Shown: in pieces, positions 48,793-63,213 of the stretch
How positions within the stretch are numbered: position 1 is the first letter of the stretch
Layout of the letters: each line of letters starts with the position of its first letter
DNA from: Escherichia phage ECO340P2
Sequence record: OP172792
Length of the DNA: 64,000 nucleotides
Strand: one strand, 5' to 3'
Notes under the pieces: generated by a model
Database searches by the model: none
Told to the model about the DNA's origin: nothing
What the model saw: only the letters and a program-made list of their open reading frames with translations
Position numbers and translations under genes: made by a program

Positions 48793-48988
48793 TTCTACCT
48801 CCTTCAATGCTTTGTGCCGTACCATCCCAAGCCATTAGAATGTTTTCCAATAGTTCACGAGGCTCTTTAAACCAAACTTCCATTTCATCAAGGATCTCGT
48901 CCGTGTCGTAAGTATAACCTGGAACACCAAGTTCACATTTCTTAAGATAGCTTTCTAACCAGCGGTGATAATTCTTAACCCCATTCAT
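48785..48988 (-). CDS. hypothetical protein
   Basis: 67 aa ORF. Confidence 0.5.
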   Translation of the reverse strand: MNGVKNYHRWLESYLKKCELGVPGYTYDTDEILDEMEVWFKEPRELLENILMAWDGTAQSIEGGRNE

Positions 48989-49361
48989 ACTGTGCTACCT
49001 TTTCTTTTACCCAATCTACACGATCTTTATCATAATGTTGAGTGCCAAGGAAAAGACCATTGTGGAAACTTTCCTCACCGAAAGGATAAATTGGATCTAA
49101 ACCATCTTCTTCAAACAACATTTTTAATCGATTTGATGTAGATTTCTTAGTTTCTGAATTGTAGTTTGTGGTTATAAGCCAATCTTCCAAACAACGACAC
49201 AAACCTTGACGAGAATCCCAAGGAAAAACACAATCTCCGACAGGAGCTTGTTCAGCCCATTTCAACCAGCCTTTAAAAAAGTTATACAGTATGTAGTCTT
49301 CAGTGTAATACATTAGCGCCTCCTTTACATATACAATAACACCCCGCAGAACGGGGTGCAA
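48975..49361 (-). CDS. paralog family A member (FY..W..GLC..FPF..WV small protein)
   Basis: shares FFKGWL, GLCRCL, YPF and RVDWVKEKV blocks with six other ORFs in this block. Confidence 0.55.
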   Translation of the reverse strand: MHPVLRGVIVYVKEALMYYTEDYILYNFFKGWLKWAEQAPVGDCVFPWDSRQGLCRCLEDWLITTNYNSETKKSTSNRLKMLFEEDGLDPIYPFGEESFHNGLFLGTQHYDKDRVDWVKEKVAQYEWG

Positions 49362-49364
49362 CTA

Positions 49365-49976
49365 TTATTTAATCTGTTTAAAAATTTCGTTTGGAACGGT
49401 ACCGTTTAAAATACCTTCTACGATCTCTTGTGCAGATGTGTAAGAGAGTCCAAAAGAAGCTACGCCTAAAATTGCCTCCTTCAAAGGATCTGGCAGGGGT
49501 TCAAAATTACCTGCAACAAAGCCACCTGCACAAGCAGCGCCTTCATCATCCCAGAAAACAACTGCTACATCGTTACCATGCGAAGTTGTGCGATGTGCAA
49601 TAACTTCAACTTCTGTTCCTTCTTTAGGAACAGAATAAGAACTGTCCCAAGAATATCTTTCCAAATCAGGAACAAAGATAACCTTTTCACCTACTGGCGG
49701 CAGTTCACAACGATAATACCAAGAATTTTTTTCGTTCATTGTTTTATTTTCCTCCACGTCTTCAAAAGTAACGATCCAATCGTAGCCGTAAGAAAACGGA
49801 TATTTTAGATCTAAAGAATAAGTTTGACCTAGATCGTCCTCAACAAGAACCATCCTGTCAAAGTTTGCGATGTTAGGATTATGTTTAATGATAGGGTATG
49901 TTTCCCCTACAGTAAATTGCCCCAAATGGTAAAGGTCATCTCTCCAAGTAATTTGGATATGAGTGCATTGAATCAT
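49365..49976 (-). CDS. hypothetical protein
   Basis: 203 aa ORF. Confidence 0.55.
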   Translation of the reverse strand: MIQCTHIQITWRDDLYHLGQFTVGETYPIIKHNPNIANFDRMVLVEDDLGQTYSLDLKYPFSYGYDWIVTFEDVEENKTMNEKNSWYYRCELPPVGEKVIFVPDLERYSWDSSYSVPKEGTEVEVIAHRTTSHGNDVAVVFWDDEGAACAGGFVAGNFEPLPDPLKEAILGVASFGLSYTSAQEIVEGILNGTVPNEIFKQIK

Positions 49977-49980
49977 AAAA

Positions 49981-50253
49981 TCACCCCCAAGAAATATTTA
50001 TATATCTTACAATGTTTGCACTGTCTAAAGCCATGTTTGCACCACACCCACGCTCGCGCCAGTAACTAACAATACCTTCACAGATACTCTCTTGTATCTT
50101 CTTATCACTTGGCATTTCTAGTATAAGACTTGGGTTGTGGATGTTTATGTTATAATATCCTTCCTCTGCGGCTTGAGCTACCAATTTACTTACTTTTTCA
50201 AAGTACGGGGAATTAGTGGCATCTGCCATTGTTTTTAAGGTTTGTCTATCCAT
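49981..50253 (-). CDS. hypothetical protein
   Basis: 90 aa ORF. Confidence 0.5.
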   Translation of the reverse strand: MDRQTLKTMADATNSPYFEKVSKLVAQAAEEGYYNINIHNPSLILEMPSDKKIQESICEGIVSYWRERGCGANMALDSANIVRYINISWG

Positions 50254-50618
50254 TATTCTGCCTCATCATAGAAGAAATCCAACTCTTGTTCCAGTTGTTT
50301 AACTTGATCCTTAACCCACTGTACACGTTTTTCATTAAACATGCAACGTTTTTCCTTACACTCTTGCTCAAAAGATTTTGCTGTGTTAAATGGGAAAGTT
50401 GTATCTAAGCCAGCGTTTTCAAAACTGGCTAATTGCATACCATAAACAGAATATGCTAAAGAATGCTCTGCCCGAAATTCATCACTTATATACATACGCA
50501 GACCTCGGCATAAGCCAACATCAGCGTAACCACTTTCTCTTGGAAAGAGACGGAGGTGTTCTAACCAATTATTATAGAAATCTAAAAGAATCCTCTTACA
50601 CTTCAAATCGATTGTCAT
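50253..50618 (-). CDS. paralog family A member
   Basis: LDFYNNWL, GLCRGL, FPF, RVQWVKDQV; ATG after GAAGGAG (ORF-track start 50708 overlaps upstream gene). Confidence 0.5.
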   Translation of the reverse strand: MTIDLKCKRILLDFYNNWLEHLRLFPRESGYADVGLCRGLRMYISDEFRAEHSLAYSVYGMQLASFENAGLDTTFPFNTAKSFEQECKEKRCMFNEKRVQWVKDQVKQLEQELDFFYDEAE

Positions 50619-51018
50619 AAAAAGTTTCTCCTTCATCAAACAAGTTGGCAAGATTGTTAACGGCAATCTGGGTGGAAAGAAGACAACTGTTTGCAGACAC
50701 ATAAGCACGAGCTATTTTGTAAACATAAACTTTCGTATTACAATTGTCTAGGATCGGAAGACTTTCGTCGATAGCATCTATAACACTAAACATCACATCT
50801 AAAACTTTAATGGTGAGTGTTGTATTTGTATCTTCGTAACCTTTTTCAATCAGACCTGAATAGAAGGTATAGTCCTCAACAGTTCGTCGTTTAAATTGGC
50901 GCATAAAATCGGAACCATCTGTAGCAGAATTGAACAAATTTTCAAAAAATACGTCCCATCCTGCAAAAAGGGCTGACAGCATGATTAAGTGATCTACAGA
51001 TTCATTTTCTTGTTTCAT
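50596..51018 (-). CDS. hypothetical protein
   Basis: 140 aa ORF. Confidence 0.5.
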   Translation of the reverse strand: MKQENESVDHLIMLSALFAGWDVFFENLFNSATDGSDFMRQFKRRTVEDYTFYSGLIEKGYEDTNTTLTIKVLDVMFSVIDAIDESLPILDNCNTKVYVYKIARAYVSANSCLLSTQIAVNNLANLFDEGETFYDNRFEV

Positions 51019-61770: not shown

Positions 61771-62015
61771 TTTCTACCTCCCCATAATGCTAACATTTTA
61801 TTGAAAATGGAAACGCGTCGTGCGCGAGATGCCATATCATAATTCATTCTTTCCGTCTCTGCAAGAAATTGATCTACTGTAATCAACGCTTTTGTCTTCT
61901 CTTTCAGAGTTTGCATATTCATCCATTCACATTCAGAATACCAATTATCGAAATACAAACTATCAAGAAGATCCATTGCTGCTTCGTTCTGTTGTGGTGT
62001 GATCATTGCACACAA
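61767..62015 (-). CDS. hypothetical protein
   Basis: 82 aa ORF. Confidence 0.5.
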   Translation of the reverse strand: MCAMITPQQNEAAMDLLDSLYFDNWYSECEWMNMQTLKEKTKALITVDQFLAETERMNYDMASRARRVSIFNKMLALWGGRK

Positions 62016-62018
62016 CCT

Positions 62019-62249
62019 TTAATAGACAATTTCATATTCGTGAGGAAAGAAAACATAATCTTCCCCTTCTCGTGCATCTATCTCGTCCCAAAACCATTCC
62101 TGCACTTCCATCATCTTCGAGAATCGCACATGAGCAAGCCCACTGTATTCCACCGTAGCTTCCAGCACAAGTGGAAATTTTGCATGTGCCAATCCTTTAT
62201 AACCACCATCATTCTCAATACGAATTTTCATGCGTTTCATATTATGCAT
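62019..62249 (-). CDS. small acidic protein, EWF..DYVFF pair member
   Basis: EVQEWFWDEIDAREGEDYVFFPHE. Confidence 0.5.
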   Translation of the reverse strand: MHNMKRMKIRIENDGGYKGLAHAKFPLVLEATVEYSGLAHVRFSKMMEVQEWFWDEIDAREGEDYVFFPHEYEIVY

Positions 62250-62451
62250 CCTTCAGACTCTTAATGAAGTGACGAGCAACAGGGTTCCCGTAGAAATATT
62301 CATTAATGAAATCGATAACACACGTTTCACTGCCTGTCACAACGGATGGTGCAAAGTTTTGGAACTGCACAGTTACACGACTTGCTTTAGCAAGGGTGTG
62401 CACACGATCAGTGTTAGCTAAATACAAAGATACAGTTTTCATATTTGACAT
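62242..62451 (-). CDS. hypothetical protein
   Basis: 69 aa ORF. Confidence 0.5.
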   Translation of the reverse strand: MSNMKTVSLYLANTDRVHTLAKASRVTVQFQNFAPSVVTGSETCVIDFINEYFYGNPVARHFIKSLKDA

Positions 62452-62510
62452 TTCAATCTCCTCATTGGCTATCTGTTATGCGCGGTATGCAAACCACTAT
62501 ACAGACATTT

Positions 62511-62879
62511 TTATTCAATGCAAGCATTATTTGCATCTTCAATGCGATCTTTCACCCATTGAAGACGTAACGTGTTGGTATGACACGCCAAGTTTATACA
62601 CTCTGAAAGGTAATCCATGCAATCTGCATTGAACGGAAGATTGTAGTCCAGCCCTGCACATGTAAATTGTTTCCTCATTTCATATTTCAAACGGTCCAAC
62701 AAACTATCCCGCCATCTTCTATCTTCTTCTCTAGTTGTCTCACCAACAAAATCATCTACATAATCCACCAGACAACCACATAAGCCACTCGTTGTGCGAT
62801 TCATTGCAGGATAGTTGGCAATCCATGCTTTATAGAAGCGAAGCAATGTTGCACTGCTCAACGGAATACTATTTGTCAT
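62511..62879 (-). CDS. paralog family A member
   Basis: FYKAWIANY, SGLCGCL, LPFN, RLQWVKDRI; ATG after AAGGAGA (ORF-track start 62894). Confidence 0.5.
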   Translation of the reverse strand: MTNSIPLSSATLLRFYKAWIANYPAMNRTTSGLCGCLVDYVDDFVGETTREEDRRWRDSLLDRLKYEMRKQFTCAGLDYNLPFNADCMDYLSECINLACHTNTLRLQWVKDRIEDANNACIE

Positions 62880-63213
62880 TTTTCTCTCCTTCATAATCCT
62901 GAATTCTATCTAGCACCCATTGTATACGATGTTTGTTTTTATGGCAAATATGTTTTTTATGTTCGAAGGTGTATTCTTCATAACCACCTTCATTAAACGG
63001 GAAATTGTAATCCAATCCTGCACCAATAAACTGGGATTTCATCTCCTGTTGTAGACGAGGTAACAGTTCATCAGGATATGTTCCCTCTACATACTTAATC
63101 AAACATATGCACAAGCCACTCGTTGTGTGACCTTCTACCTCACCCGCAAGCCACGCTTTGTAAAACTTCAATAGACGTAAGCTACTCACTTTGATGCTGG
63201 GCTTACTTTTCAT
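62869..63213 (-). CDS. paralog family A member
   Basis: FYKAWLAG, SGLCICL, FPFN, RIQWVLDRI. Confidence 0.55.
   Translation of the reverse strand: MKSKPSIKVSSLRLLKFYKAWLAGEVEGHTTSGLCICLIKYVEGTYPDELLPRLQQEMKSQFIGAGLDYNFPFNEGGYEEYTFEHKKHICHKNKHRIQWVLDRIQDYEGEKNDK

Follow-up and report, generated by a model that had tools for sequence, protein, structure and literature searches.

The closest described relatives of the genes reported here are gp3 of coliphage N4 and the proteins annotated as 'N4 gp3-like' in the Schitoviridae, which are of similar size (N4 gp3 has 104 amino acids) and carry the same sequence motifs. No function for N4 gp3 is described in any source that we searched, and the match names the family without explaining what it does. 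A 64,000-nucleotide stretch of DNA from Escherichia phage ECO340P2 (record OP172792; the whole stretch is hereafter called the window) carries seven such genes on its minus strand, here called p1 to p7, whereas N4 has one copy per genome. The family is already catalogued, always as 'unknown function', since all seven proteins match PHROG 2510 (E = 1e-25 to 1e-31) and all seven orthologues in phage anhysbys bear the note 'pVOG VOG7392'; these are automatic clusters, and the multi-copy expansion is found in neither. Our preferred reading, to which we give a probability of roughly one half, is that the products are N4-gp3-like early, soluble, cytoplasmic accessory proteins that would act on a host component through a shared Cys/Arg site, probably as dimers, each paralogue having its own target and being dispensable where that target is irrelevant.

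Ocr and Acb2, small helical phage counter-defence proteins with solved structures, offer a likeness of type, and the family may work in a similar way: such proteins are small, acidic and helical, and are products of early or accessory genes of virulent phages that are often dispensable in laboratory hosts. They differ in that there is usually one copy per genome and no near-invariant Cys/Arg site, and no structurally solved anti-defence protein (Ocr, Acb2, Tad1/2, anti-CRISPRs and others) could be linked to the family, as no PDB entry resembles it in fold or sequence. The ankyrin and BTB/kelch families of poxviruses and the multigene family genes of African swine fever virus (ASFV MGF) are diverged, tandem-duplicated copies near a genome end, with a repertoire that varies between relatives; the likeness to these is in genome dynamics only, as they belong to eukaryotic viruses and have unrelated folds.

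Seven homologous genes in one minus-strand block

The 14.4-kb region of ECO340P2 that holds the family is 99.8% identical to Escherichia phage ECO340P1 (OP172791.1; genus Phapecoctavirus, subfamily Stephanstirmvirinae), with window position 1 corresponding to about position 84,097 of the ECO340P1 record, and many phAPEC8-like phages match it at 92-98% identity. All seven open reading frames (ORFs) lie within a minus-strand block of 54 annotated small genes, running from about 63.4 kb down to a hairpin at 44,517-44,540, in which the family genes are annotated as 'hypothetical protein' throughout. The copies are as follows, with E-values for PHROG 2510 and for the leave-one-out hidden Markov models (HMMs) described below.

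p1, 48975..49313, minus strand: 112 amino acids, the most divergent copy (WAX14499.1); PHROG 2510 E = 8e-27; leave-one-out HMM E = 2e-16
p2, 50253..50618, minus strand: 121 amino acids, divergent; PHROG 2510 E = 3e-26; leave-one-out HMM E = 4e-20
p3, 53137..53463, minus strand: 106-108 amino acids, canonical, with the full conserved polar set; PHROG 2510 E = 6e-31
p4, 53896..54222, minus strand: 108 amino acids, canonical, structure modelled; PHROG 2510 E = 5e-31; ratio of non-synonymous to synonymous substitution rates (dN/dS) 0.31
p5, 57130..57444, minus strand: 104 amino acids, canonical; PHROG 2510 E = 1e-28; leave-one-out HMM E = 1e-23
p6, 62511..62879, minus strand: 122 amino acids, with an insertion between helices 2 and 3 that is about 10 residues long when compared with p7 and longer when compared with p5
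p7, 62869..63213, minus strand: 114 amino acids, the first family gene of the array; PHROG 2510 E = 8e-26; leave-one-out HMM E = 7e-30

The initial annotation, made from the sequence alone, had proposed a seven-member paralogous family on the minus strand, and the existence and homology of all seven ORFs were borne out by alignment, phmmer, BLASTP and leave-one-out HMMs alike. A MAFFT alignment of the seven products has 14 invariant columns, including G-L-C, P-F and R-x2-W-V. When each copy alone was compared by phmmer with all 671 six-frame ORFs of the window it recovered the other six at E = 1e-5 to 5e-36, the sole weak pair being p1 and p6 (0.05-0.1), and no unrelated ORF fell below E = 0.1. 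BLASTP joined the copies into one component at 27-51% identity, the closest relationships including p3 with its nearest paralogue p4 (51% identity, phmmer E = 5e-36) and p6 with p7 (47% identity, E = 2e-30); the best pairwise E-values go down to 1e-38. HMMs built with one copy left out recovered each omitted copy at E = 2e-16 to 1.5e-35, the best false match being at E > 0.03. Scanned with the HMM in six frames, the window and the complete ECO340P1 genome gave exactly seven copies, all in the block, and no eighth.

Some details of the proposed blocks and gene limits need amendment. G-L-C is invariant as was claimed, while GAP-x4-PF is found only in p3, p4 and p5 (p1 has QAP); similarly the R and the W-V of the proposed R-h-x-WV-[KR]-[DE] block are invariant, the two positions after them being different in p7, which reads WVLD. 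The ORF given for p1 (48975-49361) is real with the wrong start: the ATG at 49313, also used in GenBank (48975-49313), sits 6 nucleotides after an AAGGAGG ribosome-binding site, and the TTG at 49361 falls inside a hairpin that lies between the stop codon of the upstream gene and this ribosome-binding site. For p3, given as 53137-53463, the ECO340P1 record has 53137-53457.

Terminator-like hairpin, 49339-49359, minus strand: 9-bp stem with 6 G-C pairs, followed by a T-rich tail

A conserved polar site on a predicted five-helix domain

AlphaFold2 modelled p4 with a predicted local distance difference test score (pLDDT) of 94.3 and a predicted template modelling score (pTM) of 0.86, placing helices at residues 5-19, 34-42, 50-64, 77-85 and 93-107, and the divergent p1 was modelled with the same five helices (pLDDT 93.7, pTM 0.87). 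The layout has a long loop after helix 1 and an insertion of variable length between helices 2 and 3; the models are all-helical except that the helix 1-2 loop of p1 holds two 2-residue strand or bridge segments. No signal peptide or membrane segment was evident when the sequences were judged by eye. Six copies are acidic (isoelectric points of 4.5-5.1) and p7 is the sole exception at 7.7. The initial annotation had held that no function could be read from the sequence, and this still stands: none of the seven proteins reached a curated cut-off in Pfam, NCBIfam or PADLOC, ten longer relatives likewise reached none in Pfam, and the PDB gave no match by sequence or fold. Others working on phage PTXU04, which has three members of the family, had a similar outcome, as their HHpred analysis of every PTXU04 gene left all three 'unknown' and their AlphaFold-based structural searches with the remaining hypothetical genes had limited success (PMC11879866).

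Conservation was measured over 247 unique domains of the wider family, with the following result.

Gly33-Leu34-Cys35: 95%, 94% and 98% conserved
Glu57: 82% conserved
Gln61: 81% conserved
Pro72-Phe73: 99% conserved
His90: 73% conserved
Asn92: 93% conserved
Arg95: 98% conserved
Trp98: 94% conserved

The motif set G-L-C, P-F, R and W-V, invariant in the seven copies, is 89-99% conserved in the 247 domains. In the model Cys35 is at the first turn of helix 2, and Arg95, Lys/Arg100 and Arg/His102 lie on one face of helix 5, forming a basic stripe on an otherwise acidic protein. Because so many polar residues are conserved, this pattern suggests a shared functional site, which would consist in all copies of Cys35, the Pro72-Phe73-Asn74 loop, and Asn92 and Arg95 where helix 5 begins, joined in most by Glu57, Gln61 and His90. 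Copies p3 to p7 have most of the polar set (the exceptions in p5 are Ala for Glu83 and Asp for Asn74). Copy p1 lacks Glu57 and Gln61 and has Asp at the Asn92 position, keeping the Cys, Pro-Phe, His and Arg, and p2 lacks Glu57, Gln61 and His90.

A site of this kind raises the alternative that the proteins are small enzymes or small-molecule binders (sponges) built around Cys35 and Arg95, acting on a metabolite, a nucleotide signal or a conserved host macromolecule, with paralogues that may be tuned to different substrates and with p1 and p2 perhaps as degenerate, non-catalytic copies. The persistence of Cys35, Arg95, Asn92, Pro72-Phe73, Glu57, Gln61 and His90 over 247 domains and many hosts argues for it, as do the basic stripe of helix 5, the loss of both Glu57 and Gln61 from p1 and p2, and the place of Cys35 at the N-terminal end of helix 2, where the reactivity of a thiol is often tuned; the fold gives it no support, and we consider it unlikely.

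Several specific sites were considered and either rejected or weakened. HEPN is an all-helical domain with an R-x4-6-H motif, and the family resembles it in being small and all-helical, in having an invariant Arg where its last helix begins and, in some members including p5, a His seven positions later. It was rejected because this His is not conserved: 36% of domains have His at position 102 and 49% have Arg, with His only in p5 within the window, and the four-helix HEPN fold is not that of the models. A metal site of Cys35, Cys89 and His90 was discarded, Cys89 being only 47% conserved, and a Cys-His-Asn triad is weakened by the 73% conservation of His90. A papain-like Cys-His hydrolase does not fit either, since Cys35 is 98% conserved but His90 is not similarly kept, the model is all-helical and no such enzyme is among the fold matches.

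Size and distribution of the wider family

The size of the family became clear from an exhaustive profile search of 1.84 billion cluster representatives (50% identity clusters), which matched 1,849 clusters at E <= 1e-3, 856 of them at E <= 1e-10; word-indexed homologue searches had reached only 31 and 15 proteins. With the family HMM built here, coliphage N4 gp3 (YP_950481.1) is a member at E = 3.6e-20, as are Erwinia phage Gutmeister gp8 (annotated 'N4 gp3-like'; E = 1e-27), PTXU04_00085, _00086 and _00087 (E = 1e-26 to 3e-32), Ralstonia RSB1 ORF5, Bas80_0089, and gp006 and gp010 of phi92. One protein considered as a relative, JSS1_004, proved to be unrelated and is a T7 gp0.7-type kinase. 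Weaker matches were obtained to PHROGs 6418, 27059 and 2176. The PHROG 2510 profile has 219 positions, of which the window proteins cover the first half only, perhaps because two-domain members are modelled in it as well.

Among 50,697 phage records, tblastn located the family in 245, at 623 places. These include Phapecoctavirus, phi92-like phages and other coliphages of about 142-146 kb (A73, A5-4); Erwinia N4-like phages and podophage-sized Achromobacter and Klebsiella records of about 72-75 kb; phages of about 45-47 kb such as Bas80 and IME207; a T7-like Ralstonia phage and Rhizobium phages of about 43-46 kb; and a Xanthomonas jumbo phage and Pseudomonas phiPMW. The identifiable hosts of the matched records are Proteobacteria. 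One related locus was found in IMG/VR from p4. Among 72,556 plasmids, tblastn with the consensus-like member P0087 matched one record only, and as this encodes Phd/Doc, a dUTPase and an S24 peptidase its gene content suggests a phage-plasmid. No relative was found in 185,579 GTDB species genomes for the single motif pattern scanned, which came from a motif-rich sub-alignment and makes this a partial test. No source searched gives any member a name, and in the literature we found no paper discussing the family.

How the copies arose and how they evolve

Family genes are often adjacent or overlapping. In the window p6 and p7 overlap by 11 nucleotides, the p6 ribosome-binding site (GAAGGAG) and ATG lying inside the 3' end of p7, an arrangement which suggests that the pair is translationally coupled. 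Three members stand in a row in PTXU04 and three in phiWec181, Citrobacter phage Tr1 has three adjacent pairs and one two-domain fusion, and 21 of 230 member proteins (about 9%) contain two or three domains in tandem. This frequent adjacency, together with the fusions, points to tandem duplication as the origin of the copies and, by Rosetta-stone logic, they probably function as dimers or pseudo-dimers. No firm conclusion can be drawn on the order of duplication, as a neighbour-joining tree of 32 domains is star-like with long branches and has clear sub-groups only for p3/p4(/p5) and p6/p7; p2 clusters, weakly, with phi92 gp010.

The expectation that this would be a rapidly evolving family did not survive comparison with related phages. 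In phAPEC8 all seven copies are present in the same order at 92-100% identity (98% for p2 and 100% for p6). When the window was compared with phAPEC8, anhysbys, AV125, REC and Ro121lw, pooled dN/dS was 0.16 for the family against 0.14 for the other block genes, with single copies ranging from 0.04 (p5, the most constrained) through 0.09 (p2) to 0.32 (p3, the highest), and replacement by a divergent allele was seen in 2 of 35 family comparisons while for neighbouring genes replacement or absence was seen in 27 of 175. In phAPEC8, anhysbys and AV125 every copy is intact, REC has a 52%-identical family allele in place of p3, and Ro121lw has a 44%-identical one in place of p7. Since REC and Ro121lw are otherwise 96-99% identical to the window, these replacements indicate that family alleles can be exchanged by recombination.

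Larger differences are met further away. Nine copies are present in phiWec181, of which only three are close orthologues, and in Citrobacter Tr1 ten domains are spread over nine genes, none of them more than 37.5% identical to the window copies; elsewhere there are at least two copies in phi92 (first 14.7 kb scanned), three in PTXU04 and one in N4. The family is retained in every Stephanstirmvirinae genome examined. Because close orthologues are stable and under purifying selection and repertoires differ only at greater distance, the copies are, on these sequence comparisons, old and individually constrained paralogues rather than fast-evolving genes.

The same data bear on whether the copies are functionless or selfish duplicates drifting in a permissive, mosaic accessory region. 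The mosaic nature of the block (27 of 175 neighbour comparisons) and its two further paralogue families would suit such drift, as would a knock-down of the PTXU04 copies without phenotype, described below. Against this, dN/dS is 0.04-0.32 for every copy, three relatives keep all seven intact while REC (p3) and Ro121lw (p7) have one diverged allele each, and near-invariant residues extend across >1,800 clusters, which makes drift a highly improbable explanation.

Genomic position in other phages

The initial annotation placed the genes in an early-gene array, and relatives in other phage lineages do lie, by position, in early regions. In N4, gp3 lies between gp2 and the RNA polymerase II (RNAPII) genes gp15 and gp16; gp1, gp2, gp15 and gp16 are early gene products, and gp1 and gp2 are RNAPII cofactors (PMC4496689). 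A metagenomic N4-like contig likewise has a member after Gp1 and Gp2 homologues. In Ralstonia RSB1 the member is two genes upstream of the T7 gp0.7-like kinase, a metagenomic contig with T7-type kinase and primase/helicase genes has one upstream of its gp0.7-type kinase, and the two members of phi92 are 2-4 kb from the left terminal repeat. The N4-like, T7-like and phi92 relatives thus agree in having family genes in early regions.

The N4 arrangement could also be taken to mean that the proteins serve the phage itself, for instance by assisting or regulating its early-to-middle transcription or its replication, with no host target, since gp3 sits between genes for RNAPII cofactors and those for RNAPII. 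Purifying selection and retention throughout the Stephanstirmvirinae genomes examined would also be expected of such a role. However, the family is spread over phages whose transcription strategies are unrelated (N4-like phages, which have a virion RNA polymerase, T7-like phages, and large myoviruses such as phAPEC8 and phi92), its copy number varies from 1 to 10 domains, the copies are mostly acidic, which argues against nucleic-acid binding, and the three PTXU04 copies gave no fitness defect on knock-down; we therefore regard a purely phage-internal role as improbable.

What the proteins may do

Knock-down data exist for one phage, as a transcriptome-wide dCas13d screen (CRISPRi-ART) classed PTXU04_00085, _00086 and _00087 all as 'Not Fit' (PMC11879866, supplementary file 16). 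Silencing these genes thus cost the phage no fitness on the laboratory host, and this fits an accessory role.

Under our preferred reading of host-directed accessory proteins, the seven genes would have arisen by tandem duplication, with other small genes inserted between the copies later. Each would encode a small, soluble, mostly acidic protein consisting of a single five-helix domain of about 100 amino acids, probably made early in infection and acting in the cytoplasm on a host component rather than on the phage's own machinery. The copies would share the one conserved site and, because the remainder of each protein differs, each would probably recognise a different target or target variant, with dimers or pseudo-dimers as the probable working form. 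They would be accessory factors that help to take over the host or to counter its defences, since individual copies are dispensable in a laboratory host. We infer the early timing in ECO340P2, the host target, the dimerisation and the per-copy specificities from the comparisons above. A role in anti-defence or takeover would agree with the restriction of the family to phages and with its dispensability in PTXU04; a specifically anti-defence function, as one form of this reading, is plausible though less likely than not.

A number of points weigh against this. The family is no more variable, and no more often replaced, than its neighbours, which is not the usual signature of an arms race. The strongly conserved polar residues, kept in phages whose hosts differ greatly, resemble an enzyme or ligand pocket more than they do binding surfaces that diversify. 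Early expression in ECO340P2 is suggested by gene position and by the relatives, and a sigma-70 consensus scan of the block found 67 matches compared with 56 +/- 8 in shuffled sequence, which is not above background. Lastly, the absent PTXU04 phenotype could reflect redundancy among the copies. A bolder proposal would accommodate the pocket: an unrecognised fold with a true active or ligand site (Cys35, Arg95 and Asn92 with Glu57, Gln61 and His90), making the family a new and very widespread class of phage counter-defence enzymes or sponges whose paralogues work as homo- or heterodimers, each against one host immune pathway or signal. This seems to us rather unlikely, and accessory proteins with a host target remain our preferred reading.

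Other features of the region

The block contains further paralogues, and paralogue families account for 13 of its 54 genes. The four tandem genes of the second family share an N-terminal module and are 26-41% identical (BLASTP E = 4e-5 to 1e-14); their presence varies, or they are replaced, among related phages, and the single copy scanned (59411-60196) had no Pfam match. A serine recombinase stands amid the small genes of this virulent phage; its protein is 100% conserved in five relatives (dN about 0), and its label varies between records (DNA invertase, resolvase or, wrongly, ABC transporter).

Second paralogous family, 58964-59401, 59411-60196, 60209-60667 and 60674-61129, minus strand: four tandem genes with an N-terminal 'MFK(V/A/E)G..Y.FKS' module
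Third paralogous pair, 56513-56734 and 62019-62240, minus strand: about 73 amino acids each, 37% identity, E = 2e-11
Serine recombinase, 51027-51698, minus strand: Pfam Resolvase N-terminal domain, E = 5e-18
Hydrophobic ORF, 63203-63358, minus strand: 51 amino acids, overlapping the start of p7
Non-coding stretch of about 1.6 kb, from about 63420 to 64000 and extending past the window end (L001 21310-22936): directly upstream of the first family gene
Bidirectional terminator-like hairpin, 44517-44540, both strands: perfect 10-bp stem flanked on either side by T-runs, closing the block at its 3' end
tRNA cluster, 7117-9036, minus strand: 11 genes, Rfam RF00005, 39-72 bits

The 51-amino-acid ORF is probably a membrane peptide, judging by its hydrophobicity. 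A similarly hydrophobic N-terminal segment precedes the family domain in the metagenomic representative P0043 (176 amino acids), where a peptide of this type may have been fused to the domain or wrongly included in the gene call. The non-coding stretch, which has no annotated coding sequence in relatives either, contains direct repeats of 17-28 nucleotides, some of them about 177-180 bp apart (e.g. ATGAGAATGATTATTATT), together with inverted repeats and several sigma-70-like matches; early promoters or regulatory sites may be clustered there. At the other end of the block the hairpin is close to a sign change in GC skew near 44 kb, and in phAPEC8 Sir2-like and DNA methyltransferase genes lie beyond it on the opposite strand.

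Some matches to the region come from phages deposited with hosts other than Escherichia, namely Acinetobacter phage ABPW7 (OP562383.1; 98% identity over 92% of the region) and five 'Campylobacter' phage records; the host assignments of all six may deserve checking.

Conclusions

The family, its clusters and the phage genome were already public, and what we present is a well-supported description of a catalogued family and not a new system. New here are the link to N4 gp3, the size of the family and its restriction to phages, its near-invariant site and its tandem fusions, its expansion in Stephanstirmvirinae to 7-10 domains and the evidence against rapid evolution. Virulent phages of Proteobacteria from many unrelated groups, the model phage N4 among them, carry the family, and yet it has neither a Pfam entry nor a solved structure. 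Functional work on it should be tractable, given a site that is 93-99% conserved and includes a nearly invariant cysteine, the repeated fusion of domains in tandem, and the expansion to 7-10 domains in therapeutic phages of the phAPEC8-like type. If the proteins do form a counter-defence or takeover module, this would annotate thousands of 'hypothetical' phage genes and might help to explain the host range of the Stephanstirmvirinae phages that are used in therapy.

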